Shown here: positions 10,592 through 51,625 of the stretch, in pieces
How the letters are laid out: each line of letters begins with the position of its first letter
How positions within the stretch are numbered: the stretch's first letter is position 1
Origin: Harriotta raleighana
Lineage: Eukaryota
Reading direction: 5' to 3'
DNA length: 64,000 bases
Assembly (NCBI GenBank): GCA_050575255.1
Contig: JBNZDD010013520.1
Span: 787,751 to 851,750, forward strand
Made by a program: the position numbers and the translations under genes
The notes under the pieces: model-generated
Told to the model about the DNA's origin: nothing
Databases searched by the model: none
Seen by the model: only the letters and a program-made list of their open reading frames with translations

Positions 10592-10680
10592 AGAGGGCGC
10601 GTGATTATCTGCACAAGACTGGACGGTACATTGTGATTGGCGGAATAATCTCACCGGTCCACGATTCCTATGGGAAGCAG
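10592..10680 (+). CDS. NMNAT2: NMNAT2 exon 2 ([30 protein letters not shown])
   Basis: cacag| acceptor, CAG|gtaagg donor, 89 nt, phase 1 to 0. Confidence 0.95.
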
Positions 10681-19600: not shown

Positions 19601-22600
19601 GCAGAATGGGAGACGTTCCATCTACCAGAACACTTCAATCACAAACAACAAACCCACCGCAGGTAAGTCTCGTGTGGCAAGGTGGGTGATGGGCGGTTGG
19701 CTGTGGTGATATGGGGAAACAAATACTTGGCTCTGCAGCGCCTTGAGATATTCTCCCGTGAAAGATGCAATACAAATGCAATTGTTGCTGTCTCGTTGCT
19801 AGTTGCTGACACAGATTCGCTGCAGTGTTTGAAATGACAGATCACAGCATTGCAAATGTTTGAACCACTTTGCACAGTAGTTTTGACTTGATCACGCACA
19901 TAAATATTTACTATTCTTTGCGAATCCAGGGTGTTAATAGTGTAAGCAAGTTAATGCAAGTTACGAACAAATTCTGTGTGTGTTGAGGGGATGTTGGTGA
20001 GACACAGCTAGGTACCTCATTTATTTATCCTAATAGAGTACTCACTTAACACTAAACAGTAAACAAATCAAATAGGAAGACTTCATTAAATGCAAAACTC
20101 AACACGCTTATACATATTTAATTACAATTTAAAGTAACAACTGTTTAGTAAGCATTAAGTATTAATGTTTTATTGAATCTTTATTATAAAAAATCCTGTT
20201 TATATCTCACTGAGATTATTACTTCTTTAAAATGGAAATCTATCAAGTGAAGAGCCAAACTCTTGAACAGAGCTCAGTATGTGTGTCAGTCTGGCTCAGT
20301 CACGAGCTCTCTCACTTTTGAAAGAGAAAATTGTGGGTTCAAGCCCCACATTGAGACTTGAACTACCATCGTCTAAGGCAGTTTATGTCCTGAATCAAAA
20401 AACATGTATCACCCCTCCTTACATCTGGAGCTAAAACAGAACACCCTAACTCTACCCATCATGTTAGTCCTTTCTCTCCACTCAGCCATTGCCTCAATGA
20501 ACAATTTGAATAATTCTAATGGTTCTTCTTGCAGTTCGGTTCCTGGGGAAGGTGAGTGAGAGCCTAGGGAAGATCTGCTGTGTCCGACCCCACATTGAAC
20601 GCTTCACGTTTGTTGGTGAGAAGATTTCCTGTTCTCTCTTATCGAGTCTCGATCTCATTTACTGTGTGCTTCACATGTACTAGACTGTCATGTCCTGCCG
20701 TTTGCCGTTGAGTTTGACTCAGTTGGTTGCCCACATACGTGCCTCTGAGCCAGAGGATTAGGGGTTCGAGACCAGAGTTAAAGAGTGACGATGAATGGTG
20801 GATAAAGTCTAAGTTTTTTTATGATCAACATTCAACATTATACAGAACTTTCCCTCCGGAGTTTCAAGGGGTTCAGTTGAAGCAGACTGTAAAGTGGGTT
20901 GTGATGAGTGTTTGGAAAGAAAAGGTTTTGAGGAGCATAATGGCATTCTCCCATTCCAAGCTTTCTCATATTGCACTGACTTGAACTCTGTCTGTTTCAG
21001 ATGAGAACGCAAATCTGGGCACTGCCGTAAGGTACGAGGAGATTGGTGAGTGTCACAGCATCAACTCCCCCCAATATATTGTTGCTGTTATCCCTAGAAA
21101 AGTTGATATTGTTTTCCAGTTATCTTAGCTTTTATTTTCCCTCTTCAACCTTCTACTTGATGGTACTGTGTACATACATGCAAAGGTCCGGGGTCCATTT
21201 GTGTAATGGTGTCTTGTGCATGCATGTGCAGTGTGTGTGTGTGAGGTGGTGCAGCGTGTTTGTGTGTATGTGTGTGTATGTATAAATGTGCAGTGTGTGT
21301 ATGTATAATGATCCTCTCCAGTGTCAAACCTTATGTCTATGCCCCCATCCCTTCAGAGCTACGTATCTTGTTGCTGTGTGGCAGTGACCTCCTTGAATCG
21401 TTTTGCATCCCAGGCCTGTGGAACGAGGAAGATGTGAGTATTTTATGCCTCTCTATTTGTTTTCCGGGCTGAGTTAAGATTTCATAGACCACTCTCATTG
21501 ATAGGATTTTACTTGCTAAGTTGAAAGTTCAGAACCAACCATTTCAATAGTTTGGAATATTTTTCACTGGTAATGGTTGGATATTGCTTCCATAACATTG
21601 TATTTCCATTCCATTCTAGTTATGTGTCAAGCTGGCTCAGTTGGTTACCTCTATCGCTTCTGAGGTTGTAGGGATTTTGAGCTCATTGTAGTCTAGGCTG
21701 AAACTCCAGATCTACATTGCCCAGAGGTGCCATCCTTCAGATAGGGTGTTAAACCAAGGCCTTGTCTGCTTGTTCAGATGCATATTAATAATCCAGTGGA
21801 ACTATTTGAAAAGTCATAAGCAGTCCCAAAATCATAAAAATATACAAATTGCTGGATGAAACAAAACCAAGGTCTGTCCATTTGGCTTTCCACCATCCTA
21901 GCAGTTGCTTGTACATGTCATATCGCAAACTATGTGCTGTAGGTATGTAAGTCGTGGGACTGTAGACTTTACCCAGTGACTGGATTCACATCATGCAGAA
22001 AACTCTGCTTTGACTGATTCCATTCCAAAGTGGATGGACAGGGGAAGGAATCCAATTGCGGAACACCGTAACTTAGGTCCAGGTTGTTCTCACCCAGCGC
22101 AAAGTATGTGTGAAGCCACAGGGAGGATCATTGTCACTGTACTTTGACATACTCTCTCCCAGATGGAGGTGATTGTGGGCGACTTCGGCATCGTGGTGGT
22201 CCCACGTGAAAGAGTGGACACAGACCGCATTATGAACCACTCCTCGGTCCTCCGCAAGTACAAGGTCAGTGTGCAGCTCCTGGGTCCAGGGAATTTGGCT
22301 CAGAGTAACTTTGTCATACTATTCCGCGCAATATACAGTCAATTCACTTTACAGTATATTCTGTGAAGTGCTTTGGGACATCGATAAGATGTGAAAAGCG
22401 CGATATCAAATGCAAGGATTATTATTATTATTATTCTAGTCGCCACATGATAGGAAGGATATTATAACATTAGAGAGAGTACAGCGAAGGTTTACAACAA
22501 CAACAAAATTACTCTTGTAAAGTGCCTTTCATGTCAGGAGGAACATCCCAAGGCGCTGGGACGTTATAAGGATGTTACCTGGCATAAGTGGATACAGGCA

Positions 22601-23712
22601 TTAGGAAAAGTTAGGGCTGTTTCCCCTCAATGTTCAATCCACAACTAATGAGCATTAATATAAGGTAGGCATAGGTAGATCTAACATGGAGTTTAGGATG
22701 GATTTGTTCACACAGAGGGTTGTGAGAATGTGGAGCTCATTGCTGGTTATGGTTGAATAGCATCAAGGTATTTAATAGAAAAGTTGCAAACACGATGGAA
22801 AGGAATAGAGGGGGATAGGTGAGGGGGATAGGTGAGGGGAATAGGAGGGATGGAGGTATTATGTGGAATATAAACACTGGCACAAATTAGTTGGGCAGAA
22901 TGACCTGCTTCCATGCCTATCACTCTGTGTAACTCTACGTGTAAAACAGAAAGCTCTTTGCTGTGCAACATCAGAATATATCTTGTCGGCTGACGACACG
23001 TTTTAAACAATTTGGAACTTGCTCACTTGCGTACATGGGTTTGGTGGAACACAGCTCGGTATTCCAGCATAAAATACTTCAAAGACTTTCTTTTTCTCTG
23101 AAACAGGACAACACCATTGTGATAAAGGATGATACCAACCACCCTATGTCTGTTGTGAGTTCTACTAAGAGCAGGTGAATACCCAAAGTCTAATCATATG
23201 TTTAGTATGGCTTATGCAGAGTTGAGTTATCTCAACAATGAATGGAATACAAACTCTTGAACTGGAGATGGACAGGTGTATGACTTATTGTATGGTTTAT
23301 ACAGATCAGCTTTAAACAAGTTTATTGTAGATTGTTCCTCTGATCAAAATAATGAGCAAAGATAATGTATCATTTATACAGTAACAAAATGGAATGCACT
23401 CGATGAGTTTATTAGAACCTTAGAGAAAGTACAGTGAGGATTTTGACTGATTCCAGTCATTGAATGAATATAGGATGAATGAATATAGCCATCTTGAAAG
23501 ATTGGATGAATTGCAACTTTTCTCTCTGGAGTTGAGATAATTGAGAAGGAGACTTGGGACATCCTCTGGACAAAAGCAAGGATTATTTCTTCATTATTTA
23601 TTCCCACAGACTGGCTCTGCAGCATGGAGATGGACACGTGGTGGATTATTTGAACCAGCCAGTTATTGACTACATCCTGCAGAATCAGCTTTACATCAAG
23701 ACTTCTGGATAA
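10592..23712 (+). CDS. NMNAT2: NMNAT2, nicotinamide/nicotinate mononucleotide adenylyltransferase 2: span of coding exons 2-11 (5'-partial, exon 1 not in window)
   Basis: Ten GT-AG exons (836 nt) splice into one open frame from [18 protein letters not shown] to QLYIKTSG*, closely matching vertebrate NMNAT2, including the CC palmitoylation motif and [12 protein letters not shown]; tail-to-tail with LAMC2 as in mammals. Confidence 0.97.
12188..12489 (-). mobile_element. tRNA-derived SINE, near full length
   Basis: Reverse complement of the same head, body and (TTA)n tail. Confidence 0.82.
12540..12785 (-). mobile_element. L2 LINE 3' fragment
   Basis: Degenerate L2 ORF2 C-terminus (FRTRLKTFL-like) on the minus strand. 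Confidence 0.65.
13163..13230 (+). CDS. NMNAT2: NMNAT2 exon 3 ([23 protein letters not shown])
   Basis: ctgcag| acceptor, AG|gtaaac donor, 68 nt; not in the ORF track, translated manually. Confidence 0.95.
15490..15688 (-). mobile_element. 5'-truncated L2 LINE
   Basis: Encodes [31 protein letters not shown] (L2 ORF2 end), (TTG)n tail, flanked by repeated ATTATTATTATCA. Confidence 0.82.
16275..16645 (+). mobile_element. Deu-domain SINE, near full length
   Basis: tRNA-like head TTGGCTCAGTTGGCAGCACTCTC, CACTGTCGGAGGTGCCATCCTTCGGATGAGAC block, L2-type tail. Confidence 0.75.
18174..18252 (+). CDS. NMNAT2: NMNAT2 exon 4 ([26 protein letters not shown])
   Basis: ctacag| acceptor, AAG|gtaaga donor, 79 nt. 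Confidence 0.95.
18982..19222 (-). mobile_element. Deu-domain SINE 3' part
   Basis: Reverse complement of the shared body and tail. Confidence 0.7.
19539..19662 (+). CDS. NMNAT2: NMNAT2 exon 5 ([41 protein letters not shown])
   Basis: Polypyrimidine tract plus tatag| acceptor, CAG|gtaagt donor, 124 nt. Confidence 0.94.
20535..20615 (+). CDS. NMNAT2: NMNAT2 exon 6 ([27 protein letters not shown]), Golgi-targeting/palmitoylation region
   Basis: ttgcag| acceptor, TTG|gtgaga donor, 81 nt, contains ICCVRP. Confidence 0.94.
21001..21045 (+). CDS. NMNAT2: NMNAT2 exon 7 ([15 protein letters not shown])
   Basis: tttcag| acceptor, TTG|gtgagt donor, 45 nt. Confidence 0.94.
21215..21305 (+). repeat. 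Imperfect (TG)n microsatellite upstream of NMNAT2 exon 8
   Basis: Direct observation. Confidence 0.85.
21357..21433 (+). CDS. NMNAT2: NMNAT2 exon 8 ([26 protein letters not shown])
   Basis: cttcag| acceptor, GAT|gtgagt donor, 77 nt. Confidence 0.96.
22163..22264 (+). CDS. NMNAT2: NMNAT2 exon 9 ([34 protein letters not shown])
   Basis: tcccag| acceptor, AAG|gtcagt donor, 102 nt. Confidence 0.96.
22437..22935 (+). mobile_element. CR1 LINE 3' fragment, interrupted by a short L2 tail
   Basis: GAGAGAGTACAGCGAAGGTTTAC and TTCACACAGAGGGTTGTGAGAATGTGG blocks typical of the CR1 ORF2 end and 3' UTR. Confidence 0.7.
23107..23174 (+). CDS. NMNAT2: NMNAT2 exon 10 ([23 protein letters not shown])
   Basis: aaacag| acceptor, AG|gtgaat donor, 68 nt. 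Confidence 0.95.
23610..23712 (+). CDS. NMNAT2: NMNAT2 exon 11, last coding part ([33 protein letters not shown])
   Basis: ccacag| acceptor, TAA at 23710-23712. Confidence 0.95.
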
Positions 23713-34376: not shown

Positions 34377-34630
34377 TTATTGCTTTTCAATGGCTGCAGC
34401 GTTGAAACATCCTTCGGGTAAAGTATTTATGATATCTTCTAGGTTTTTAATATCTCCAAGGATGTCCTTGATGTCTCTGTCAAAGGCTGCGATTGTGTCT
34501 GACTGGGCCGTGGCTGCTTGCTCCAGTTCCTTCACTTTCAGCTTTAGCCCGTTGTTCAATTGCTTCTTAGCACGCTCCAGTGTTTCCTCAACAGCTATCA
34601 GTCTGTCCTCGTTAATCGGAATGGGGTTGT
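34377..34630 (-). CDS. LAMC2: LAMC2 exon 23, last coding part (...[25 protein letters not shown])
   Basis: ttacag| acceptor, TAA stop; canonical gamma-chain C-terminus with Glu third from the end. Confidence 0.94.
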
Positions 34631-37600
34631 CTGTAAACAAAATGTGTTTCAAAGGGTTTTTAAAGGGTAGGAGGGAGGGTGGTTATTGTTTAATTCACAT
34701 GGGAGGTTCCAGAAGAAGGTTTTCCTGTCTACGTGTCTTGTCGCTCCACAAAGCTTACCTGACCATCCTCCCATTGCAGCATTGAGTTTTTTTTAAATGA
34801 ATCCAACATCCTGGCCTCAACCACCCTTCCAACTCTTAATTTGTCCACAAACTACACAGTCAATCCACTTTACGGTATATCTTCAAGATATGATAAGGCG
34901 CTATATCAAACGCAAGAATTATTATTATCATGTTTGCTTATCCGCTATGTAAATGTCTGTCTTGAAATTGCTACTGATAATCTCTTGTATTATCATATCC
35001 AAGAGAATTATAGCTTTACTTTCTCATTTTATGTAACATTTATAAAGTCCTCTCCAAGATGTCTCTATTCAGTGCTGAAAAGCCTTGGCTTATCTAGTTG
35101 TATCTCATAATGTTTACTGGCCAGGTCGCTGTCAGTGGTGCCCAGGCTGTAATATAATGTAATGTAACGGCTGTAATGTAATGGCTGTAATGTAACGGCT
35201 GTAATGACCTTTTACTGGTGCACCTTTCATTCATGTGATAATCTACAAGCAGTTGATATGCACAAGACAATCTTTAGTCTTTACATTTTCAGACTTGCTA
35301 AGATCTAAGCCCTACTTACCCAGAGATAGCAGCATTTGGTTTATCACGTCTGTTGCATTGCTCACAGCGTCCTGAGCGTTGGCTGTGTTACCGAATGCTT
35401 TGTCTATGGCTTCTGTGATCTACAATCGAAACAAAACCCATGAGTAAACGCAAGGCAAAGTGATAAGACAGGGAATGTTCCAAGTCTCTTGCAAAACCAT
35501 CTTCCTCCCCTCTCTCCCTTCTCCTGGGTGTATTAGAATTGCAATGAGCAGATAATTTCCCATTCATTTTGCCTAATTTTCATTTTTCTAACCGCCCCCC
35601 ACCTCCTCAAACCCCTATCGTCTTTCAAAGTCCACCTCAAGTCTTATACCTCTTTCACCACCTGTTTGGTCATCTTTCCCATTTCCCTTCCCAACATTTT
35701 CTTGTTTTTTTTGTTGCCACTAAACCTGAGACTCTGGACCTCACTGCCTCAATCCCTCTGCCTTGTCCATCTTCAGATCACACCTGAACACCAGCTTCTT
35801 TGACTGTATCTTTAGTTACCTCCTTTGTCTCCCTGGCTCAGCATCAAGCTGACACAGTTAAGTGCTCTGAGATTTAATATCTGTTACAGCTTCCAGTGCG
35901 ACTTATCATGGCCCCAGTCCAGCTACAATTACTAGAACCAGAACTGGTCACAGAAGCGAGTCATTTGTCCATTTAAGTCTTAGACAGAATAATAAGTCAA
36001 TATTCGTTCCTTCAAGAGATGTCATTGATATTTGGTATTTACCACTCTTTACCCTCACATAAAATTTTCCTTCACAGGTGTTCAATGTTGCAACACACAA
36101 ATAAATGAATGTCAATATCCACCAGTTTCGCCATCATCTCTCTATCTCTCGCTCTGTCTCTCTTCTTTACTCTGAGACCAGTTCCTCAATGGCTTAGAGC
36201 TCCATAATTTGAGGGGTGGGAGGATAAGGAAATGTCCTCTCCATCCCAAACATTTCTGTAATTCATGCAGGTAGCATCAATATAAAAAATCTCACCTGGT
36301 GAGCATTCTTTGTATCACGATCCACTAATTTCCGCTTATTCTCCACACCGGTCTCTAGGCCCTTTAACTGATATTCCATGTTAATCATGTCACTTGTCAG
36401 TGAGTTGGCATCATTCAGAGCAATTGTTGCATCATCTAAAGCTTTGACAGCATTCTGGTGAGAGGGAGTGAAAGAGGAACATCAGGTCATGTTTTAAGAT
36501 CACATCAATTTCTCCTCAGAGTGAGGAGCTAAAACATGCTGTGGCATATCCATTGGTCTTTTGTGTCTGTACCTGAGAGTGCAGAAGAGCAGCAAGCTAA
36601 TTCTTTGACCTGATGGGTACCTGTTTGGCCTCTACCCGTGCCACGCACTAACCAACCCACCATAGACAGTTGGATTCCAGCTGCTTTCCCTCACCTCTTT
36701 CAAGGTCAGTCTCACGACCTTCCTTTTTGACTAAGTCTTCAGTTATTACTCAGCTCCCCATCCTACTTTGGCTCCCACCCCTAGTTTGGTTGCCCAGCCC
36801 ATCCTGCCAACATGAATGGCACAATATAATTTGCATTATGCAGTCACACTCCTGATGTTAATTGATTTCAAAACAACCGGGCAAGGAATGGGCAGAGGAG
36901 CCTTCATCATGTGAACCAATCTAGTGAACATCTGATTGTATCTAATGGAATTGCAAATCAATAACAAATAATGTGATCATACCTTCAAAACCTTATCTGC
37001 CATGGAATCTGCCAATTTGGCATTTTCCTTAGCAGTATTGGCAGTGTTCACTGCATTGCCCAGAGTGTCCTTTGCCTGTTTGGTCTTCGAGTTGGCCAGG
37101 TCGATGGTTCTGCTGATCCCAGGGATTTTTTTCAAGGCATCTTCAGCAGCTGTCTTATTACCTAGCATCCGCCCGTTAAAACCTGCAACTGCAATGCAAC
37201 CATACAGACAGTTAAATCAAGGCTGGTCTTTCTACATAAAATAATTCAGTGGCTTAACTAATGAGTTTTAATAAAGTTAATCAGCATAATGGCACGATTA
37301 AATAGTGAAGAATTTCTTTATTCAGCTACAGGGAGCGGTTAGTCAGTGATTTGGTCTGTGAGTCAATTACAGGGGTCAATCTGTCTGTCAATCAATATAG
37401 GAGTAAACAGTGGCTCCAGCCAAAATGACCCCCATAGGTAGATTGAGGGAATTCTGGTGCGTCAGGGTAACACATCACAAGTTGCCATAAGGAACAGTGT
37501 TAAACATTATTGACATTACACTCCAGCTCAAAGCAGTTTCTTGCTGTAATCTCAATTCAGCCTTCATAAATTTAACAAAAGGAAGCTCTGAGCTCAAAAA

Positions 37601-40600
37601 ATTCAGTCCGCGGAACCTGCCCCTTGCATAGACAGTGTACAACTCAGTCTGTTATCAATTGCAGTGCCACTTATTGAATACAGTAACCACCCACTTAAGT
37701 TCCACCACCAGCCAGCTATCTAAGGTAAGCAACAGCACGGCCTTCAATCGTGTTATTGGGAAAACACAAAGAACAACATGAACAACAGCAACAATATTAA
37801 CAACAAACCGTTTAAGTTGTTCAGAAGTCGTTCAATTTCCTCCAGGGTAGCTGCCCCATTTGTGACCGCAGCATCAGCCAGATCCTGGGCAGCCTTAGCA
37901 CGAGCTAGCAACATATCAGCAGTCTGCAAAGCATAGAGGAGGTCAGATGCTTGTAATAATAATCCTTGCATTTCATATAATGCCTTATCACATCATTGAG
38001 ATAATAATAATCCTTGCATTTGATATAGCGCCTTTCATGTCTTTTAGATGTCTCAAAGCACTTCGCAGCATATAGAGTAAAGTGAATTCCCTGTATACGT
38101 GGGCAAAATACGGCAGGCAATTGCACACAGCAGTGTCCCACAAACAGTCGTGGATTGAAATGACCAATTTATTATTGGTTTTTTTTGAGGGCTTATTATT
38201 AGGCTTGTGGAGTAAAGAAAGATGTTTTAAAGCGCTTCACAGAATATATTGTAAAGTGAATTGACTGCATATTTTCTGGACAAAATTGTACCAAACCTGA
38301 AAGACGCACAGGGTAAATAAAAAGGAGACATTTGAGCCACAAACTTGATTAGATTTCATCAAATCATTTAATCTCTCCTCCCTTTATCCATACCCCTTAA
38401 TATCTCTACTATCCAAGTATCTGTCTATCTTTCATTTAACCATCCAAACACCATAAATATAACATGCTTTCAATACCGGAGCCCAGGCAAAAGGAGCAAA
38501 GACATGGTAATATTAATGGGCCGCAGTGGATAAAGACACTGCTATTGCAGGTTTAAATCTGAAGTGCAAAGTATGAAACCCTGACCTGTGTCAAATTGGC
38601 ATATCAGACAGGGCAGCAATTTGGGGGCATAGGAATTAGTCTCAGTTCCCTCAATCATGGGCTAGAGGCCATTCGTGGAAGGTAGACAAGGAATAGATGA
38701 AATGTGGCTACTTGGACATTTCAGGTAAACTCATCCCCATCAACCTTTTTGGATGTCACAAACCAAAGATTCCAAAATATGGAAATAGGCCACTTGGCCC
38801 AACCAGTCTGTGACATTGTTTATAAACTCTACATGAGTATTCAGTCATTTCTTACTCCCTCCCATACCCCTCAACTCCCCTTCAGCATGTGAAGTTCTGG
38901 CTCCTTCTTGAATGCATCTACCCTAACTGAAGAAAAATCTCACCATCTGATCAATTTTTCCTTTTTCTAAAAGTTTTCTGATGATATCTTGATATTCATA
39001 AAATTTATTCTGTTGCCTCTCATAGTCTTGAAACTTTCCGTTTAGATCAAGCGTGATGCCAGTTTGTTTGATCTCAAGACTATTTGCCTTTTCCTGAAAA
39101 AGAGAGTAGGGTGTGGGGCAGAATGGGGGGAGAGAAAAAGAAGAAATTTTTCATTTGTTTTATCCTCTCACATATTTCTTTCTAAATACTGCAATATATT
39201 TTTTAAAACATTTGATTTATCTAAACATTCTCAGAAAGTAAAACAATTAAATACCCATTTCCATCTTAGATGTAGGATACTTTGGGTTGGGGTCAGTAAA
39301 TATTAAAATAGTGATCGTATTTGATACAGCACTTCTAATGTCGTCAAAGCACATTGCAAGATTTTGTAATAATAATAATCCTTGAATGTGATATAGCGCT
39401 TTATCACAACGTTGAGATACCTCAAAATGAATCGCAGGACAAACTAAAGAGAAGTCAATGTATGTATTTTGTGTGAGAATATGGCAGACAGCCAATTTGC
39501 ATACAACAAAGTCCCACAAACAGCTTTTGAGCGAGTGACCAGTTTTATTTAGTAGAATTGTTGGTTAGGACACTGTGAAAAACTTTCCTTTTCGAATAAC
39601 GCCATGGGATCTTTATTGTTACCCAGATAGGCTGATATGACCTTGGTTATTGTTGTGACTGAAGAACAGCATCTCTGACAATGCAGCTCATTTGAACACT
39701 GCACTGGAGTAAGATGTGTAGTGAATGTGAGGGCATTTGTGCAGAAATTCCCTAAAGGAGATAGTGTAAATCAAAGTATTCTTAGGAAAAGGTGAGTGAC
39801 TCCATCTGTTCCCTAAGTTCCATGACCTATTGAGGCTCATTGAATGTTTGCAGTAACACCCCCACCCACCTGAACACACAGACCTGCCATGCAATGCAAT
39901 ACACTACTTACAGTCAGAGAAGTTATATCAATCAAAGACAAGTTGTTCAGTTCACTGAGGATCTGCGAGGCCCTGTCACTAGACTTCTTTGATTTGGAGT
40001 TTAATGTGTCATCTTGTTCTTCGAGATCTTTTAACATGTCATCGTTTTCATCAAACCTGGCAAAGCAATGATGGTTAGAGAAACAGATACACAAAAATAC
40101 AGTTTTCTTTGTAAGGGCATCAGGTGAAATGTCAACTTTCGTTGATTGCAACTTGTCAAATCCTTCACTCTGAAACAGCTGGTGTTCAGTATGTACCCAC
40201 TTTGTCTTTTGTATCGACTGAATTCAAACCCAGGTCCCAGGTTGTTTGAAGCTACAGTCGCAACCCAATCCCCATTAAGCTATAATTATTCCCCACTCCC
40301 ACAGATATAATCATTAATAAACCTTGCATTTGATGTAGCGCCTTATCACATCATTGAGATGACTCAAAGCGCATCACAAAATTTATTGTAAAGTGGATTG
40401 ACTGTATATTTTGTGGCTGAAATGCAGTAGCCAATTGCGCTCTTTGTTTAAGAAAAATATAATTGATCTTTAGATGAAAACTTGACAACGTTTTGGAAAG
40501 CACTTCACAGCAATTAAAGGACTTTGAGACTTTCTCTAAGGTAAAATAAATAAGTGCAAGTTGCTGTCTCTCCAAGCATGGAGAGAATGGTCATGATGTG

Positions 40601-43600
40601 GTGAGTGGACCATCTAATAGCTGCAAACGTTCTATACATGGCATTGAGAAGTTTCTCTGCGCAGAGAAAGTGCAGGCAATAGGGTAACCATTGCTGGGTT
40701 TAATAGTCTCTCCCTGTTCCTAAGAATAATGTCCTTGTCATTGCCTGATTCCTGTTCTGCCAGGTGCAACATTTGACATTTGAACGAGCGCAGGAACAAA
40801 TGCCGAGACTCATCTCTCAACATCACTTACTGCTGCTCCAGTCGGTTAATGGATTGTGTTACTTTCCTATCGTTGGCCAGCACTTCGCGAATCAACTGTA
40901 AGGCACTGGAAGACAGGTTGTTGGCGCTCCTCGAGAGACTTTCAATCTTATCTGCGTCTCTCTTGTGCCTGAGTAAACAAAAAGGGAAAGAAAAATAGAG
41001 AGTCCATGAATATCCAATTTGGAAATAAGCAAGAGTAGCCTGGTCATGTGGGGAGGATAGGTATAAGATTATAAAAGACCCAATTGTAGATACAAAGACT
41101 GCACTTACATGTCCGCTAGTCTACGAGCCTCATCTGCCAGGCTCACCAGGTTGCTGTCTCCTCCTGAAATATCAGGCAATGCCGGCTGTAGGAAAGAACA
41201 GGCGCATTTCATTGTAGTTAGCAATACACACATACACACAGAAATACACTTGATATTCATTTTATGAAAAGTACTGGTTTTAATTCGAATTTACATAATT
41301 CTACACAATCTTGATTTTAAAGGCAAGTTTGTCTCCCGTAGATTGTCGAGGTTCAAACTTTTAATAATAATAATAATTCTTGCATTAGAGATAGAGCTTT
41401 TCATGTTGCAAAGATATTGCAAAGGACTTTACAGGATTTACTGTAAAGAATAGTGTATTTGTAGGCAACCAATTTGCCTACAGCAATGTATCATACACAG
41501 CTATGAAGTGAATGACCACTTTTTTAAAATAAATTGGACACATGGAGAAACTCCTTTCTCTTTTCCATCAGAACATACAGACGGGATCTCGGTTTAATGT
41601 CTCATTAGAAGGACTTCACCTTCAACAATGCAGCACATCCCAGAATTGCATTGGAACGCCAACAGACTGTGATTCCAATATTGAACCCACGGGCTTCTAA
41701 CTCAGAAGTGGGAATGCTACGACTGAGCCAGGCTCACAGGCTGTTTAAGGTAAGTAAATATAAAAGGCACCGACTGGATACCTGTCCATAAAGTAATACT
41801 TCGATCAGTGAAGATGAACCTCGACAGGTTTGTGCTGACTTACTATGCGTGTCATTTCTGTCCTAGCTTTCAGGATCTCATTCCTGACTTGGGTAAGCAG
41901 CCGGTCTGTCCTGCGCACTTGGTCATCATACGTTATTGACGACCTTCTGGTCTCGTCGACAGTTCTCTTGACACCATCCAGACGCGCGCTGTTGCTGCTC
42001 AGCTGTCGGTTGATTGTGTTCAGGGATCTGACGTTTTTCTCATCATTCTCTGCAAAAAGGAACCACAGAACCCGTGATGTGACAGGACATGAAAGGTAGG
42101 TTAGGGATGGAAATGGAAGGGGATTGTTTTTAATGGGACAGTAGCTTTGGCTCAGAAAATAGTACACTGGGTGCAAGGTCCATCTCCTTCGGGCAACCCC
42201 ACATATGTCACACTTAACATTTTTCCCCATGAGAGGTGCCATTTTCAAGTACAATCTCCCCCCACACCATCCCCTGCCCACCATGCGTTCAAATTATGCG
42301 GCTTGAAGTGCACTTAGCTCCTGTTTCACCTTCAGAACCCACGGAGATATCAAGAAGCAAATACAGTACTTGCACAAGTCTAGGTAAATCCATGTGCGAT
42401 TGGTTGAAAAGTGTTTTCAGTCTTTTCTTAATGGAACATTTCTTCACTTAGAGCATAAATCAAGAAATATTCAATCAAGAAAATCTATTCAATTGTCCGA
42501 CCATGAAGATTGCCCACTGCTACTCCGTAGGTTTTGCGGGTTTCAAAAAGTTATTCTAAAACAGTTTGTTTCACTTCATGTGGGAATCTCACCTTTGACG
42601 TCTCCGGCTGCTAACACCATTTCAGACACGCCTTGCGATGCCTTCCTCATCCTCTCCTCAAAGTCCTTGTCAGAGACAGAGTCTGGATCTCCATTGACCT
42701 TTGAGATGAGGATTTCCAGCTCCCTCACTGTGATCTGGTGTTTTGCCACCTAAATAATAAAGGTTATTTATTGTTACAGCAATGTATACCTGTCAGCCTG
42801 CTACAGATATTAACACGCCCACGTCACAGTCGGATGGTTGTGGGTTGAATTGCCACATAATAATAATAATAATAATAATCATCCTTGTGTTTGATATAGC
42901 TCCTCATCACATCCATTGAGGCATCTCAAAGCGCTTCACCGGATATAGAGCAAAGTGAATTGACTATATTTTGTGGGCGAACCATGGCAGCTACAAAACA
43001 CACAAACCATTGTGGAGCATTATTAATAGTATTAACAATAATAATACCTTATTCAAGACTGCCTGGTAACAGCTGGGACATTCCTGGCAGCCCGTGGTGC
43101 TGTTGTAGTACCTGTCTCCCGCACACTGGTCACACTGAGGCCCAAACATCCCCGGCCGACAATCACATGTGCCGTCACCCCTGCATTGTGTGGACCAGGA
43201 ACCTCTTGGATCACAGCTGCATGCTGCAAAATGAAACACACACACACAGATTTTTATTGAACATCTGTTCCTTCTATCCATTTGTGGAGTCCTGTCGTAA
43301 ATTCATTAGAGCACTCGCCTCGCAAGCGAGAGGACCCGGGTTCCATTCTTGGGCAGGATGAAACCTTACTCTACAAGTTTCCTTACTCTACATGCCTCTG
43401 TTTACCAACCAGTAAGTAGGAACCCGGACATTAGACGATTGGAGGATCGCTTTCTGAGGATAACAATTGGCTGCTCCGTTTTGCAGACAAAAAGTCACTC
43501 CACAGTATATTTCTCAATGACATGATCATAGAATTTTACAGCACGAAAGGAGGCAATTCAGCACATTGTGTCTCTACCAGATCTATGAAAAGAGCTATTT

Positions 43601-46600
43601 AAAGTCAATCCTACTCCCCGGTTATCCCCAATTAACCCTGCAAACTTGTCCTCCCCAAATAACCATCTACCTCTCTTTAGGCCTCCACCACCCTTTCAAG
43701 CAATTCATTCCAGATTCAAACAACTCGCTGAGTGAAAAAAATTCTTCTCATCTCCCCTCTGCTTCTTTTAGAAATAATTTTAAATCTATGACAGACCCAC
43801 CAGTGGAAACAGTTTTTTCCTGTTTACCATATCGCATCTCCTCATGATTTTGAAAACCTCTCTTGGGTCTCCTCATAACCTTCTTTGCTCCAATGAGAAT
43901 AATCCTAGCCTCTCCAGCCATTCCTCATAACTGAAGTCCCTCATTCCTGGTACCATCCTGGTAAATCTCTTCTGCACCCTTTCCAATGCCTTAACAACCT
44001 TCCTGAAGTGTGGTGCCCAGAACTGAACACAGTACTCTAGCTGAGACCTAATCAGCATTTTATACAGGTAAATCATAACTTCTTGACTTTTGTACTCTAT
44101 GCCCCTATTTATAGAGTCTTAGTATCCGGTATGCTTTTTTAACAGCTGATGAGGCGCTGTATTAAATTAATCAAGAATTATTATTATTATTTTTTATTCT
44201 TACATTTGCACTTTTCAGACGGCTGCGAGTTGAGCGCGTTTCCGAGGAATCCATCTTTACATCTCTCGCAGTGGGGCCCGGTGGTGCCGTACAGGCATTT
44301 CAGGCACTCGCCGGTGTCCTGGTCACAGTTGCCTACGGAATTGGGGTCGGTGTTGCCATTGCACATGCAGGGCTGGCAGCGTCTCCCCGCCAGCGGTTTG
44401 CCAAAGTATCCCTCCTCGCACATCTCACACCGCAAGCCTGGGGTGGGGGGGGAGGGGGGGGAGAAATCATGCATGTTCAAGTACATTTGAAAAGGGAATA
44501 TTAGTCAAAACAACACAGGGCGATTTGTAGAGGCAAGTACAATTTTAAATAGGATTTGGAAAGTAATCCCAGAACAATGTGTTCAGATGCTGCCAGACAA
44601 TAGAACAAAAATACATAAGTTTAGAGTCGCAAAGGAACAATTTCAGGACAGATACCAGGAGGTATTTCTTAACCAGAGGATAATTGATGAATTGTCAGGA
44701 AGTGGGGGGTTGAGGCTAAGATACTGGACTTGTTTAAAACAAAGCTTGGCGTTCGGATGCAAAGACAGGAGGTTCTAGAAGGGAGAGATCAAGTTAGGCA
44801 AAGGGCCTTCCTCATCCACGCAGGCCTTGTGATCGAGTGATCCTGTGACCTGATTTGCAATGTCCTCACTGAGCCATCACAAGATCATAAGACACATCTG
44901 GGTTTAGATCTTATCCTTTCACATTCCCATACTATGTGCAGCTTTGGCAAAGCTCTCTGGGATACTGTCCTGTGGGAAGAGCGCTATATAAGGTCTCGGG
45001 AAATATCATCTCGGGATACAATACATAGTTTGGGACATGACATGTCAAACAACTGCCAGACTGGTGGAAGGAGAACGATATGGACTTTGGTGTTCTTTTG
45101 CCTAGCAAATTCTTAAATTGTTATAAATGCAAGTTGTTGTTGTTGGCAAGCCCGTCATTGAACACTGTAGGTTTAGAAAGAACTGTATGTTTAAAGAGAA
45201 TTGCAGACTGCACCAAAGTAGCAATTAACTAACCAGCCTTTCATTAGAGTGAGCCTTTCATGAGTAGAAATATCCTGCTGCTATTAGAAACATAGCTGTT
45301 GCTATGTCTGTTACTCCATCTCGCAGTCCCTCCGCCTTGCTTCCTCCTTTTCCTCCTTCGAGGCCGGTCTCAAGACCTTCCTCTTCGACCGCGCCTTTGG
45401 CTCCCCCCCCCTGACTCTTCCTCCTCTCCCACTTTCCTTCCCCCTCCCCCTATCCCCGTCCCTCCCTCCCGCTCAGGTCCCGACCTGACTGTTCAGCGCT
45501 TTGGGATGTCCTCCTGACGTGAAAGGCGCTATACAAGTGTAATTTTGTTGTTGTTGTTACTTTCAACCCTAATTGCAAGCCATTGCTCACCCCGAGAATG
45601 TGGACTCACCCATGGTTTTCTCGGGGCAGCTCGTACACACCACATCTCTGGTGCCCGGGGACACGGTGCAAGTCGCTCTGTTGGGGCAGGGGCACTTAAC
45701 ACAGCTACTGAGGTTGTCAGGATCAGTGTAGTAACCATTTGGACAGGTGACTGGGGCATCATCGCTGGAATAGCAGGAACCTAGGAGATGAACATGGACC
45801 AACATCTCATTAATTAAAGGCAAAGAAACTATCCTCACAGGAACTCAGGGCCTGGAGAGAGCTTGAACAGCATAAATTGTCCAGAGAACAACCTTGATGC
45901 AAATCTCATCACTTCCTGACACCGCCCCACCTCAGCTAACAGTTCTGTCATACTCTCTGATCACCTCCGCACCACCATCAGTGGCCATACCTTCAGCCAC
46001 CGCATCGCTGATTGCTGGAACTCTATGCTTCAATCCCTCCACGACTCCCCCTCTTTATCTATCTCTAAATTCCACTTTACGATTAAGACCTATCTCTTCA
46101 ACTGCACTTATGGTCTCCCCCCAACTCCCTCTTCTATCTTTCAGAGCCTCTAACCCCCTAACCTGTGCATCGCTCTGATACCTTGTGCTTTATAAATGCA
46201 ACTCATTGAGCACCACAAGAGTTTGCAATGTTTCCTAGAGCAGTTAGACCATAAATTCTCCCTCCTCAGTTCCTTAGCTACTTTCAAACCCTTTAAGTAT
46301 ATGTTACAATGGTGTGAAGCAGTAGATGGACTTAAATCCTCTTTCCTTCCTCTATGCTTTCTCCCCCCTACCTACTTCTTCCCCCACATGTACCCAACAC
46401 AAACCCATACCTGTAGGATTATGCTTCCCCTTTGATTAGGTAACTCACCTGTTTCTGGATCACAGGCGCTACTGTGGCCATTGCAGTTGCATCGGACGCA
46501 CTCGCTGTATGGTCCCAGCTCGGGCCGGTGCCTGGTGTAGCCAGTCGCACATTGCTCGCAGAATCTCCCCTCATAGCCAACTGGGCAAGTGCACCTCTCC

Positions 46601-49600
46601 ACCCACTCAGCAGGACGCTGTCCAGCACCAGCCTGGGCTGTGTGAAGGACAACATCATCCAGGTGTCCGCGGGCTGTCAGTGAAAGACATCGGGGTTACT
46701 TGTGGTACTGAACAAGTATTACTGTGGACCAATGGTTGAAAGAAATAGGTTCAAGGCCTGCAGATGTGATCTTTCCTGTATCCCATTCTGATCATGGGAA
46801 TTTCCATTACAGACAAAAGAATTTCCACATGAAGTCGCCTAAAAATAATAATAATGCTTGCATTTGATATAGCGCCTTTCACACCTTCTAGACATTTCAG
46901 TGTCTTGGGACGTCCTCCTGATGTGAAAGGTGCTCTAGAAATATAATTTTGTTTTGTTGTTGTTTCAAAGTGCTTCACAGAACATACTGTAAAGTGAATT
47001 GACCATATATTTTTAGGGCAAAAACACAGCAGCATTTCATATAACAGTGTCTTGGAAACAGTCGTGGATTGAGTGACAAAAGTTTTTAAAAATTTGTGGG
47101 ATTATTATTGGGTGTGTAGAGTAAGAAACTTGCCCAAAGTTTCACCCTGCTGGGGCTTGAAGCCAGGTCACTCGTTTGCAAGGTGACTGCTCTAACTACT
47201 GAGTTACAGGAAAATCCAGAGGAGAAACAAGACAAAATGGAACATCCAGTGGAAAAAAACCCCAAGAAATTAGAAATCCAGTGGGAAAAGAAGAGGAAAT
47301 GGGAAATCCAGAGGAGAAAAACAAGAAGAAATCAGAAATCTTGTGGATTGCATGGAACTCTCACTTTCAAGCATGTTGATGGGTCTCCGTGTAATAATAA
47401 TAATAACAATAATCCTTGCATTTGATGTAGTGCTTTTCACATCTTATCGACTTCTCAAAGCTCTTCACAGAATGTACTGTAAAGTGAATTAATTATTTGT
47501 GTATCGGGTAAGATATTCCATCTTAAATCTAAAGACCATAAACGATAGCTACTGCCTTGGAGTACTGGGTTTCTGGAGACAGTTTAAGCACGAGCAGAGA
47601 GTTCAATTCTCTAGGGGAGATCGGCATTCCAGCCAAGGGGACAGATCAGACTGAACTTTGACCCACACTTACTATGTGGCTTATATGAGCCTCGTATTTT
47701 GATGGCCTTGAGACCAGCAAGGACCCTCTGGAAATCTTTGGATGTGAGAAAAGGCTTCCATCCATACATCAATGCCTCGTGGAGCCTGGAAAACAGGATA
47801 ATTATCAATATTTTCACCCACTGAAATTTTCACTCAAGTGGAGTAACCAAAACAGAACACAATACTCTAACTTGATACTCTAAATAGGCTCTTTTCAGAT
47901 ATCCCTACCAACACAATACTGCCCTGTGTTGTACCACATTAATTCATCCTGTTGTGCTAGAAGCAGGATGCATAAACGTGAGCACTGAATTAAACTGTTT
48001 AATCCCTTCAACAGCCCACTCAACACCCTCCTTTCCTGCCTCTCCTGTTCCTCAGCCTTCAAAACTGGAGAATGGTGATGAGAATCTTTGTTCTCGTTAC
48101 CTGAATTTGTAGACCTGTTTCTTGGTGTTGGGGAGAGGGTTATTTTGTACTGTGATGGGGGCACTCAGTGTCTGGGTTTCTCCTTCCAGGATCAAATCCT
48201 CCACCGATGGGTAAGGTTCATTTCTTTCCACATAGAATGTGAAGGAGAGGTTCTGACCGTAGCTCAACACACGATTCCCTGTAAATTTGGCTGAAAAATA
48301 CAGTAAAAAGCAACATGTGGTGAGGAACATTGCTTGGGTTCCCATTTTATCCATCATTTAAAACCGATATTTAGAGTGAATATTCAGATTTGATAGGATC
48401 CTATAACAATGCAAGCTCTTTATCACTTACCTGGGGCGACGAAGTACACTGGGAATTGATCCTTGGCCTCAATGATAATGTCTTGAGAGGATGAGGATCT
48501 CCTGAGGGGGAGATCATACCCATTGCGATGCTGTGCCTTCCACCCTTCAATACCTGTCACAAAAATAAGACAATCAGGCACAATACTCTTTGGAATAATG
48601 GAGATTGACAAGCAGTTGCCTCATTGAGTCTCCACCAGTTCTCAGAGCAAGCTACACTTTCAATCCTACTTGCCCTGCCTCTTCCCCATACCACCCCAAG
48701 CCTCTGACTTATTTGCAATAATCCATCTAGCCGATAATGTACCAATATCCCAGAATTTAATCTTGAACCGAGGGATCAAACCATCGAATTGGGAAATGTT
48801 TACCCCTGACTGTTTAAGATAATCTCAAGTCCATCGCCATTTGAGGCCCTGCTGACATACCTGAGCCAAATGCGGACGTGATGCAGTCTCTGCTGTATCC
48901 GGAGTCTGCCTTGCAGATTGATGAATGTCCATAGCAGAAGCACGCTGAGCAGCCCATGGGGTTTTCTGCATCGAGGTTGAAGTGGCCTGACTTGCAACTG
49001 CGGAAGAGAACCAGACAACAGGCGTAAGAAACAAACAAAAAAAAATCCCTTTTATTCTCTCCTCTCCTGAACTCACTCTCCGAGACTTGGGTGAGTTACA
49101 AGCTTTTGCCTCTGCTTGAATGGTAATTGTTCCTGTGAGATCGACCCTAGCAGGACAATGGGTGTCATTGTGCTGAGTGACCACAGGGGGGCACCAGAGT
49201 GGAACACAAACCTTCCAGCTGGAGNAATTGTTCCTGTGAGATCGACCCTAGAGTGACCACAGGGGGGCACCAGAGTGGAACACAAACCTTCCAGCTGGAG
49301 GCGTTCAGTGGCTGAGTTTAGCACTTTGAGAACTACAGAAAACTGACTTCTAAATTAAGACTAAATTAAAGTCAAGAATTTTAAAAGTTACACTCGCCTC
49401 ACAAGCGCGAGGACTTAAGTTCGATTCTGGGCAGGGTGAAACCTTTGTCACGCCTCTGTTTATTTAGCAGTAAATAGGACCCGATTGTTAGTCGATTGGT
49501 GGATCGTTGTCCAAGGGTAATAATCTCACAACCAATTAAATTGGTCACTCAAACCATGGCCCTTTGTGGGACATTGCCGTGCTCAACTGACTGCCGAGTT

Positions 49601-51625
49601 TCACCCACAAAATACATAGTCAATTCACTGAAGCACTTTAAGATGTCTCAATGGTGTGATAAGGTGCTAAACCAAATGTAAGGATGCATTCTCGATAAGC
49701 TTATGGAGCAGGAACGGTGGGGATTTTTTTTTAACTGTATCTATCGCGGAGGCACTAATAGAAATTGTTGCACTTCACCCTTCCAAAGCTAATAGTTGTA
49801 AGGTGGAACTCAGCGACTGTGAGAATGTGTAATGGGGAGGGCCTGGGTATTTCACTCAATCCTGTTACGTCCAGGAGCACTTACTAGATACAGTTGGTTC
49901 CTTCCACATTGTACTTGCAGCTGCACTTTCCGGTTTCAGTGTGGCACACGTCTCTAGTTCCAGCCATATTACACATACAACGCCTGGTAACACAGAAACT
50001 CAATTTAATATTACAAGGGCAAGTAGCAGCAGTAATGTTGACAAGGTACAAACCTACCTACAAGGTACAAACACTGTACAGTAAATCCTGCGAAGAGGGT
50101 GAGAATTTTGATGACGTTTTGATAACATGATAAGACGCTGTATCTATTGTATGCAGCACGTCCCTCATTCCACCTCTATTCAGTAACCACCTCAAGTTAA
50201 CAAGCACAGTGGAACATCCTTGAGAGTCTGGGTCGGATCCCAATGAACTATTAGTCTTAATCTTATTAAAGGCTACTTTAGCCCAGTCTCCTGAGAAGTT
50301 GTTTGAGTTGAAGTTGTTCAATTCTGGTCTGAGTGTAAATGCAAGTTGTCGTGGTAGTGTCAGATTTGGTAATACAAAAAGCATCAGTTTTAATCAAACC
50401 ACACTAGAAAGTGAGGGTGGAGTGGACAATAGTGGAGTTTTGATGGCCTGATGTGCTCTGCTACAGAATGCTTAGTGAGTGAATCCAATGCATGTCCAGG
50501 TGACAAAGAGAGGAAAGCACCACTAAGCAGGCTGGCTAACGAATAGCGTAGGATTCAGGGCACATTGTAGTGCTGTACATTTTGTCCAAATTACTTACTT
50601 GCAACCACTGCTTGAAAGTGCATAAAATCCAGGCTGGCATTGGTCACACTTGTCGCCGATCACTCCCTCTGCTTTACATCTACAGCGACCTTGATCATCA
50701 CAGCTATTGCCCGAGGATCCTGTGAGAAATGGAAAGAACAAAAACATTTAATTACAGTAAACACAGGCACTTGGGACTTAGTAGAAAATATTCAACTTAT
50801 TGACTATTATTATTAATTTCGGTGGAATATAAATTTACTGCAAGAAATCACAGATGTCTTGTAAGTTTCAGACCTTATTGTAGCTCTCGGGTCATTCTCG
50901 TTCAGTCTAAATGCTGTCCTAAACTATTTTAGATTTGGTTTCCCTCGCCACACAGTTGGACCTAAAGAAATCACTCTTCCCTCGCTATTTCAAAGAAATG
51001 TGGACTTTCTCACAGTTATCCTGTTTCCCATTCCCCCTCCTTATTCCCACATTTACTCCCAAATTCAAGAGAATCACCTTCCCATTTCACTGATGCTTAT
51101 GGGGTGATTTGCCGCTGCATTCGCCTACATAAAGGCAATCGCTTTCATTTCCAATCGATTTTATTTTGTAAAAATGCTCGGAGACGTTTACCTGTCGACA
51201 AGGACCGTTATGCGATATGTTTCCAGATTATTACCGTTTATTGTTGTATTCTCTCCTCTGGTCACGTGTCGCTTGTCTAAACATTTTGTGGGTCACCTTG
51301 TTCACAAGGAGTGCTCACATATTCATTATTGCAATGCAGTCTAAATCCTACAGGACAAAAGCCCTAATGGGATACACACAGAATGAAACAAAACAATGAT
51401 CTTCAGTGAACATTGCCCAGCTCCAGGAAAACTTACCCATGGTGTTGCAGCCGCAAGGCAGGCATCGGCCGCCCAGGGTCTGACGGTAGTGATTGGCCAT
51501 GCATTTCTCACAGTGTAGTCCCTCTGTGTTATCAATGCAGTACAAGCAGCGAGTGCCGCTTCCTGTGTTCCTGTACAGTATGGGGTCCCACTCACACCTC
51601 GAAGCCTTTCGATTGCACTTACAGG
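34377..51625 (-). CDS. LAMC2: Laminin subunit gamma-2: span of coding exons 2-23 (signal-peptide exon 1 not identified)
   Basis: 22 GT-AG exons (3479 nt) splice into one open frame: LE repeats, L4 domain, LE repeats, coiled coil, ending [11 protein letters not shown]. No LN-domain exons were found upstream, the gamma-2-type CYSSDDAP linker is present, the short arm is short and the gene sits next to NMNAT2, all favouring gamma-2 over gamma-1 or gamma-3. Confidence 0.92.
35145..35206 (+). repeat. Short tandem repeat, ~14-bp unit GGCTGTAATGTAAY
   Basis: About four copies, directly visible. Confidence 0.85.
35320..35419 (-). CDS. LAMC2: LAMC2 exon 22 ([33 protein letters not shown])
   Basis: ttgtag| acceptor, TGG|gtaagt donor, 100 nt. 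Confidence 0.89.
36296..36454 (-). CDS. LAMC2: LAMC2 exon 21 ([16 protein letters not shown]...DTKNAHQ)
   Basis: caccag| acceptor, CAG|gtgaga donor, 159 nt; translated manually. Confidence 0.89.
36983..37182 (-). CDS. LAMC2: LAMC2 exon 20 ([20 protein letters not shown]...DKVLK)
   Basis: ttgcag| acceptor, AAG|gtatga donor, 200 nt. Confidence 0.92.
37809..37923 (-). CDS. LAMC2: LAMC2 exon 19 ([16 protein letters not shown]...LNNLN)
   Basis: ttgcag| acceptor, ACG|gtttgt donor, 115 nt. Confidence 0.9.
37953..38280 (-). mobile_element. Stacked SINE 3' fragments directly upstream of the LAMC2 exon 19 acceptor
   Basis: Two AATAATAATCCTTGCATTT tails in series plus a repeated body segment. Confidence 0.78.
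38944..39093 (-). CDS. LAMC2: LAMC2 exon 18 ([12 protein letters not shown]...[13 protein letters not shown])
   Basis: tttcag| acceptor, ATG|gtgaga donor, 150 nt; found manually, LLEKGK resembles laminin gamma chains. Confidence 0.88.
39912..40056 (-). CDS. LAMC2: LAMC2 exon 17 ([14 protein letters not shown]...IDITSLT)
   Basis: tgccag| acceptor, ACT|gtaagt donor, 145 nt. Confidence 0.9.
40831..40968 (-). CDS. LAMC2: LAMC2 exon 16 ([20 protein letters not shown]...RLEQQ)
   Basis: actcag| acceptor, CA|gtaagt donor, 138 nt. Confidence 0.9.
41109..41185 (-). CDS. LAMC2: LAMC2 exon 15 ([26 protein letters not shown])
   Basis: ctacag| acceptor, AT|gtaagt donor, 77 nt; translated manually. Confidence 0.9.
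41362..41735 (-). mobile_element. Deu-domain SINE, near full length
   Basis: Head, Deu block and tail in reverse orientation. Confidence 0.7.
41844..42049 (-). CDS. LAMC2: LAMC2 exon 14 ([16 protein letters not shown]...EMTRI)
   Basis: ttgcag| acceptor, ATA|gtaagt donor, 206 nt. Confidence 0.91.
42593..42749 (-). CDS. LAMC2: LAMC2 exon 13 ([17 protein letters not shown]...[11 protein letters not shown]...GDVK)
   Basis: atttag| acceptor, AAG|gtgaga donor, 157 nt; start of coiled coil. Confidence 0.91.
43048..43223 (-). CDS. LAMC2: LAMC2 exon 12 (CSCDPRGS...CRGDG...[15 protein letters not shown])
   Basis: ttgcag| acceptor, AAG|gtatta donor, 176 nt. Confidence 0.92.
43284..43525 (+). mobile_element. 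tRNA(Ala)-derived SINE
   Basis: GGAGTCCTGT..AGAGCACTCGCCTCGCAAGCGAGAGGACCCGGGTTCC head. Confidence 0.8.
43526..44145 (-). mobile_element. CR1 LINE 3' fragment (end of RT ORF2 plus 3' UTR)
   Basis: [41 protein letters not shown]...[11 protein letters not shown] is the typical CR1 ORF2 C-terminal region. Confidence 0.9.
44204..44437 (-). CDS. LAMC2: LAMC2 exon 11 ([12 protein letters not shown]...[10 protein letters not shown]...SEKCK)
   Basis: ccccag| acceptor after a poly-C tract, AAT|gtaaga donor, 234 nt. Confidence 0.94.
45315..45558 (+). mobile_element. 5'-truncated L2 LINE with (TTG)n tail
   Basis: GGCCGGTCTCAAGACCTTCCTCTT, pyrimidine tract and stem-loop tail; close match to 31580-31790. 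Confidence 0.82.
45610..45780 (-). CDS. LAMC2: LAMC2 exon 10 ([17 protein letters not shown]...CPEKTMG)
   Basis: tcctag| acceptor, TGG|gtgagt donor, 171 nt. Confidence 0.93.
46449..46673 (-). CDS. LAMC2: LAMC2 exon 9 (RGHLDDVVL...[13 protein letters not shown]...CDPETG)
   Basis: tgacag| acceptor, CAG|gtgagt donor, 225 nt. Confidence 0.92.
46843..47212 (-). mobile_element. tRNA-derived SINE carrying a nested antisense L2 tail (~46900-46962)
   Basis: SINE tail is split by a plus-strand CTTGGGACGTCCTCCTGATGTGAAAGG..(TTG)n flanked by TTTCA. Confidence 0.78.
47210..47348 (+). repeat. Degenerate ~30-bp minisatellite (GAAATCCAGWGG..AAGAAAT), about five units
   Basis: Direct observation. Confidence 0.72.
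47673..47785 (-). CDS. LAMC2: LAMC2 exon 8 ([13 protein letters not shown]...[11 protein letters not shown])
   Basis: ttccag| acceptor, ATA|gtaagt donor, 113 nt. Confidence 0.93.
48101..48290 (-). CDS. LAMC2: LAMC2 exon 7 ([16 protein letters not shown]...YKFR), L4 domain
   Basis: tttcag| acceptor, CAG|gtaacg donor, 190 nt. Confidence 0.93.
48431..48553 (-). CDS. LAMC2: LAMC2 exon 6 ([11 protein letters not shown]...PVYFVAP), L4 domain
   Basis: tgacag| acceptor, CAG|gtaagt donor, 123 nt. Confidence 0.93.
48861..48997 (-). CDS. LAMC2: LAMC2 exon 5 ([28 protein letters not shown]...AFGS)
   Basis: ccgcag| acceptor, CAG|gtatgt donor, 137 nt. Confidence 0.93.
49390..49685 (+). mobile_element. 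tRNA-derived SINE
   Basis: CACTCGCCTCACAAGCGCGAG..GTTCGATTC head and shared tail. Confidence 0.78.
49885..49983 (-). CDS. LAMC2: LAMC2 exon 4 ([33 protein letters not shown])
   Basis: taccag| acceptor, TA|gtaagt donor, 99 nt; LE cysteine spacing. Confidence 0.9.
50599..50719 (-). CDS. LAMC2: LAMC2 exon 3 ([40 protein letters not shown])
   Basis: tcacag| acceptor, AA|gtaagt donor, 121 nt; translated manually. Confidence 0.92.
51437..51625 (-). CDS. LAMC2: LAMC2 exon 2 ([23 protein letters not shown]...[10 protein letters not shown]), LE
   Basis: ccgcag| acceptor, ATGG|gtaagt donor, 189 nt. Confidence 0.93.

Follow-up and report, generated by a model that had tools for sequence, protein, structure and literature searches.

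γ1-type nidogen-site residues in the laminin γ2 chain of Harriotta raleighana and their probable erosion in other vertebrate lineages

Does the laminin γ2 chain lack a nidogen-binding site by origin, or was such a site lost in particular lineages? The statement that γ2 lacks the site rests, in the accessible part of PMC2185082, on the human sequence, which has Ser at positions 802 and 804 (PMC2185082; title of Mayer 1995). In γ1, loop a of the LEb3 module enters the nidogen G3 propeller at its centre via D800, N802 and V804 (PMC11260871, PMC4227867, PMC6744579), residues that the available sections of PMC11260871 and PMC4227867 describe as the critical trio, and nidogen binding is also reported, by the title of Gersdorff 2005, for γ3, the paralogue that kept the loop as NVDPNAV (excerpts of PMC2185082). 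The question is raised anew by a stretch of 64,000 nucleotides from Harriotta raleighana (the window), one exon of which encodes a γ2 LEb3 module with a γ1-type loop.

Loop a and Tyr819 in exon 11 of Harriotta LAMC2

Residues are numbered here as in mouse laminin γ1. Translation of 44200-44450 places the LEb3 peptide N798...Y819 at window positions 44354-44289 on the minus strand, with codons for N798 at 44354-44352 (followed by T799), D800 at 44348-44346 (followed by P801), N802 at 44342-44340, S803 at 44339-44337, V804 at 44336-44334 and Y819 at 44291-44289. The module aligns to mouse γ1 LEb3 without gaps and with every cysteine in register, and exon 11 matches the solved γ1 modules 1TLE (E 7e-22) and 1NPE_B (E 4e-30). 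Loop a thereby reads NTDPNSV in Harriotta γ2 and NIDPNAV in γ1, with Tyr at 819 in both: D800, N802 and V804 of loop a and Y819 of loop c, which also contributes to the γ1 nidogen site, are all present, and Ser takes the place of Ala803. The original prediction had placed D, N, V and Y in the γ1 register with Ala803 as the only change between D800 and V804, and both statements hold at the level of codons and alignment; beyond them we found I799T and, in the LEb2 loop that precedes LEb3, a 4-residue deletion relative to γ1. An AlphaFold model of exon 11, built from a 27-sequence alignment, shows an LE fold with protruding loop a and superimposes on 1KLO with a TM of 0.90 and an rmsd of 1.4; this is a likeness in fold that carries no information on affinity, and pLDDT reached 79 in two of five models and 55-58 in the other three. 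The module is thus like γ1 LEb3 (III4; 1KLO/1TLE/1NPE) in cysteine register, site residues and predicted fold, and unlike it in I799T, A803S, the LEb2 deletion and its location on a non-polymerizing chain.

Harriotta LAMC2 was assembled from 23 exons (Table 1) into a single open frame of 3579 nt and 1192 aa with GT-AG boundaries at 22/22 introns, the exon holding LEb3 being the 11th when the signal-peptide exon is counted. Exon 1 joins LE exon 2 directly, so that the LN domain is absent, and all LN matches on this contig derive from LAMC1, which is complete (LN domain, NIDPNAV/Y) and lies ~28 kb upstream on the same strand; LAMC3 is found on a different contig. In RNA-like contigs from a related organism, exon 9 is joined to 10 and exon 10 to 11 where the GT-AG sites were predicted, and the contigs continue into exon 12; they stem from two runs of one study whose RNA status is a guess, no run being on record as RNA. 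The introns flanking exon 11 hold high-copy repeats of very high read depth (43254-43507, 45286-45666 and, on the minus strand, 43876-44118, which resembles the terminal part of a LINE reverse-transcriptase frame). Single N positions occur at 2349, 13806, 30469, 49225 and 54674, none inside a LAMC2 exon, and at least three of the five fall within short duplicated stretches, which suggests assembly joins.

Table 1. Coordinates of LAMC2 and neighbouring features (window positions unless a contig is named)
Feature	Position	Strand	Remarks
NMN adenylyltransferase gene, likely NMNAT2	10459..23709	+	Tail to tail with LAMC2; coordinates are open stretches holding exons
LAMC2 exons 2-23: LEa modules, L4, LEb modules, coiled coil, stop	34377..51625	-	Glu at -3 from C terminus
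LAMC2 exon 12: complete last LE module	43048..43223	-	Alignment with other γ2
LAMC2 exon 11: second half of LEb2 and whole LEb3	44204..44437	-	AG/GT bounded
Tyr codon corresponding to γ1 Y819, loop c	44289..44291	-	Alignment to γ1
Loop a of LEb3, NTDPNSV (γ1 798-804)	44334..44354	-	D800/N802/V804 kept; I799T, A803S
LAMC2 exon 7 (L4 domain)	48101..48290	-	Without extra Cys (human C309)
LAMC2 exon 1, signal peptide	contig G000:C13520:852333-852432		583-682 bases past window edge

In its architecture the gene is like mammalian LAMC2 of laminin-332: a signal peptide followed by LE modules without an LN domain, one L4, a shortened LEb series, a coiled coil with Glu at -3 and a tandem arrangement with LAMC1. 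The full LEb series of γ1 and γ3 is not present in it, and Harriotta has its own γ1 and γ3 genes elsewhere in the genome. LAMC2 sits between LAMC1 and an NMN adenylyltransferase gene, likely NMNAT2, a synteny marker that corresponds to the human order, LAMC1-LAMC2-NMNAT2. In a maximum-likelihood tree (19 proteins x 1141 columns, LG+G4) the Harriotta gene falls inside the γ2 clade (99/98), with γ2 sister to γ1 and γ3 forming a separate clade (100/100), and a 41-row tree gave the same topology; the closest proteins are γ2 models from Callorhinchus milii, with 96% identity across exon 11 and the same loop. Owing to the missing LN domain, the order LAMC1-LAMC2-NMNAT and this placement, the gene is the LAMC2 orthologue: it was originally read as a γ2 chain, and grouping with LAMC1 or LAMC3 did not occur.

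Harriotta γ2 is unlike human γ2 not only in the loop itself (NTDPNSV and Tyr versus NVDPSAS and His, the human residues being as originally given and verified here in the human γ2 protein, P0310) but also in an L4 domain without Cys309 and in a complete last LE module. The extra L4 cysteine C309 is described from human to zebrafish in the portion available of PMC3544776; in our alignment it is absent from 12/12 cartilaginous-fish γ2 chains covering the column and present in 9/9 bony vertebrates, which marks it as a bony-vertebrate novelty and no test of orthology, and the unusual disulphide or free-thiol chemistry of γ2 processing may likewise be a bony-vertebrate novelty. In the alignment, 7 cartilaginous-fish γ2 rows have the last LE module in full and the bony-vertebrate rows have it truncated; the cartilaginous-fish chains resemble an early form of γ2.

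Distribution and ancestry of the γ2 site

Sequences for γ2 scoring include the best 120 of 553 and the best 120 of 1216 matches, after removal of repeat entries from one species, of members P0311-P0323 of a primate cluster and of three Logan records; the sampling is without frog, bichir, sturgeon, lamprey or hagfish γ2 and without named mammalian, crocodilian or amphibian γ1 protein. Among the matches listed, cartilaginous-fish γ2 chains have D800, N802 and Y819 in 19/19, with V (17), I (1) or L (1) at position 804 and S (15), A (3) or L (1) at position 803. Coelacanth γ2 is fully γ1/γ3-type (NVDPNAV/Y), and all four crocodilian chains among the matches listed have N(I/V)DPNAV/Y. Both gar γ2 chains listed keep D, N and V together with His819, and the six listed from teleosts keep the core in two, have it broken in four and show Tyr819 in none. 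Among the matches listed the core is also broken in lungfish (1/1), amphibians (4/4), monotremes (2/2), marsupials (10/10, at position 804), turtles (9/9, at position 802), birds (56/56, through D800E with N802 retained), squamates (7/7) and eutherians (48/48, D800 nonetheless being kept in 48/48). The squamate lesion combines V804S with a shared 13-residue LEb3 deletion that takes out two cysteines and Y819 (P0306, P0338, P0341, P0346, P0352, P0362, P0384).

In vertebrate γ1 and γ3 sequences the core is kept throughout (23/23 and 6/6), and Y819 is replaced in 3/23 γ1 and 4/6 γ3, making it a weak marker. Ser803 occurs in 0/23 of these γ1 and 0/6 of these γ3 chains, and, within a set of 38 presumed invertebrate γ chains, in 4 of the 27 loops that read D-x-N-x-V/I, tunicate, leech and cuttlefish being the named sources of three of these; Thr799 is present in shark and snake γ3. 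The heptapeptides of coelacanth, sevengill and skate γ2 are identical to NVDPNAV of γ3, a chain that has an LN domain, unlike Harriotta γ2. The Harriotta loop is therefore less canonical than those of coelacanth, crocodilian, sevengill shark or skate γ2, and the original view of the loop as a trait of this fish γ2 has to be amended: the residues are real, but they are found across cartilaginous fishes, coelacanth and crocodilians and are not peculiar to one fish.

Parsimony over 55 rows, using the topology of the 41-row tree with extra taxa placed by textbook relationships, gives D-P-N-A-V with Y for the γ2 ancestor and fixation of Ser803 at the chondrichthyan ancestor. Dollo counting yields 8 losses, one of them the V-to-L change in the basking shark, and unordered parsimony yields 4 steps, the site being lost on the stem shared by lungfish and tetrapods and recovered in crocodilians; for position 804 it has V804S arise on the tetrapod stem and revert in turtles plus archosaurs. 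On this reconstruction the γ1-type residues are ancestral for γ2 and the human-type state is derived, with late erosion about 8 times, or fewer if there was archosaur regain, the number of losses being uncertain. Because the γ1-type residues were inherited, loss followed the γ1/γ2 duplication, and the original prediction on this point is borne out by D, N, A, V and Y at the γ2 ancestor; γ2 probably began as a nidogen binder whose site was lost late. The mammalian state of not binding nidogen is thus likely to reflect late, lineage-specific erosion, with parallel but different lesions likely in teleosts, lungfish, amphibians, squamates, turtles and birds. A bolder proposal, which we hold tentatively and just short of an even call, is that laminin-332 was originally nidogen-binding, that the γ2 site would still be functional in cartilaginous fishes, coelacanth and crocodilians, and that it was switched off separately elsewhere. 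The candidate lesions, put forward with the same reserve, would be, in eutherians, the two serines together with His; in birds, D800E; in turtles, N802S; in squamates, the loop-c deletion; and in euteleosts, lungfish and amphibians, scrambled loops.

Retained site, relic or converted exon

Conservation of residues may have causes other than nidogen binding, and the alternative that fares best, although we consider it unlikely, is that the loop is a relic preserved by slow protein evolution and structural constraint, A803S and the LEb2 deletion having already cut affinity below function. Invariance is common in cartilaginous-fish γ2 (39.5% of 521 non-Cys short-arm sites), as a relic would have it, and on this background three invariant sites have a p of about 0.06; within LEb2-3, 27/89 non-Cys positions are invariant in 12 cartilaginous-fish γ2 chains and γ1-identical, with D800, N802 and Y819 all included (chance about 0.03). 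Selection for nidogen binding on cartilaginous-fish γ2 is accordingly suggestive only. The fixation of Ser803 at the chondrichthyan ancestor, a residue absent from the vertebrate γ1/γ3 set, also fits a relic, as do the variants P801S, A803L and V804L in sharks and rays; drift at 801, 803 and 804, with none in γ1, suggests weaker constraint. Position 803 is moreover said to be sensitive, A803V reportedly having been found by Pöschl in 1994 to lower nidogen affinity strongly; our literature search for effects of Ala803 and Tyr819 found no report. Against a relic, the chondrichthyan stem and terminal branches are long (0.48 + 0.35 changes per site), yet among the matches listed N802 is kept in 19/19 and position 804 is aliphatic in 19/19; Ala803 persists in 3/19 of these chains, and Ser803 is carried by invertebrate γ chains. 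The informative residues in this comparison are N802 and V804, because D800 is constant among eutherian γ2 chains too and Y819 is variable even in γ1 and γ3: D800, kept in 48/48 non-binding eutherian chains among the matches listed, is not diagnostic of binding.

It is improbable that gene conversion from the tandem neighbour LAMC1, and not selection on γ2, accounts for the presence of the loop. The proximity of LAMC1, on the same strand ~28 kb away, would make such an exchange feasible; archosaur γ2 LEb3 is 83-91% identical to bird γ1 at non-Cys positions, as against 74-77% for fish γ1 and 21-55% for the archosaur γ2 flanks (P0351, P0366, P0357, P0154), and a tree of exon 11 only does not recover a γ2 clade, although it is mostly unresolved (8/29 branches starred) and γ2 monophyly is not rejected on this exon (p-AU 0.085). 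In the Harriotta genome, however, exon 11 is synonymous-saturated with respect to LAMC1 (four-fold sites 33% identical), third positions are identical to LAMC1 at 28/48 in exon 11 versus 175/357 in 14 other exons (p 0.28), and by itself exon 11 clusters with that of shark and skate γ2 (99/95). Recent LAMC1-to-LAMC2 conversion in this genome is thus unsupported, and since there is neither a synonymous excess nor a grouping away from γ2, the Harriotta loop descends from that of the chondrichthyan γ2 ancestor. Conversion of exon 11 is possible in tetrapods or archosaurs only, where the likeness of archosaur γ2 LEb3 to γ1 could reflect either strong constraint or conversion.

That cartilaginous fishes have here a truncated copy of γ1 and no LAMC2 orthologue can be dismissed as highly improbable: 9/10 full-length elasmobranch proteins among the matches listed carry the NCBI label 'gamma-1-like', but this label is misleading, as forcing cartilaginous-fish γ2 with γ1 is rejected (16.7 log units worse, p-AU 0.017, LG+G4), as is forcing the Harriotta gene with its own LAMC1 (434 log units worse, p-AU 1e-72), while the 23 exons without LN have the same domain set as human γ2, the gene is located between LAMC1 and an NMNAT gene, and the Callorhinchus and Amblyraja relatives carry gamma-2 names.

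Predicted nidogen docking and its meaning for laminin-332

With the inherited γ1-type loop as the preferred reading, we consider it fairly probable that the nidogen G3 β-propeller still accepts Harriotta γ2 LEb3, whose loop descends from that of the γ1/γ2 ancestor, far more readily than it accepts human γ2; binding much better than that of human γ2 is predicted because the module has the D800/N802/V804 trio. Loop a would insert these residues into the propeller centre as in 1NPE, Ser803 would be tolerated at some cost to docking, and nidogen would then tie the non-polymerizing laminin-332 to the collagen IV/perlecan network. The absence of Ser803 from vertebrate γ1 and γ3 (23 + 6 sequences) speaks against this prediction, as does the 4-residue deletion in LEb2, a module that adds contacts in the γ1/nidogen crystal structure (PMC4227867, available in part); tolerance of Ser803 is favoured by its presence in 4/27 intact presumed invertebrate γ loops. 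According to the accessible part of a preprint, divergent worm loops, one with Ile in place of Val among them, recruit nidogen in vivo (bioRxiv 2022.02.11.479800).

The putative partners are encoded in the same genome: two nidogen genes have G2F, EGF and YWTD-propeller (G3) exons, and a LAMB3-like gene at G000:C13688:1995001-2011000 has an LN domain and LE modules, no LF and then a coiled coil. Of the two chains with which γ2 assembles into laminin-332, α3 and β3, only a β3-like one was thus recognized, and no LAMA3 gene was identified. Another candidate for LAMB3, at G000:C13642, was rejected and is presumably usherin-like. The further proposal of the original prediction, a different basement-membrane architecture through γ2-nidogen-collagen IV bridging, would be a weaker claim than docking. 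Mouse γ2 L4-LEb1 binds nidogen-1 via another site (PMC3544776) and mice with the γ1 nidogen site deleted have normal skin basement membranes (PMC3618921), as reported in the portions available of these papers; according to the title of Behrens 2012, epidermal networks are joined by perlecan and not by nidogens.

The gene and the module were already known; what seems to be new here is the ancestral retention and patchy loss of the γ2 nidogen loop. Our literature search, in which subscription journals were thinly covered, found no paper on γ2 site retention in non-mammals, and the accessible part of PMC5785718 does not address the γ2 nidogen site. The reach of the finding is limited in that nidogen is largely dispensable for the mouse skin basement membrane and the pattern can be read from public proteins. 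The γ2 loop of several living vertebrates nevertheless matches, residue for residue, a loop proven to bind nidogen, and a binding series of crocodilian, coelacanth, chimaera, bird, turtle and human modules is feasible. The pattern bears on the evolution of the epithelial anchoring complex and, if true, would provide a set of natural mutants with which to ask why the anchoring filaments of skin came to do without nidogen.
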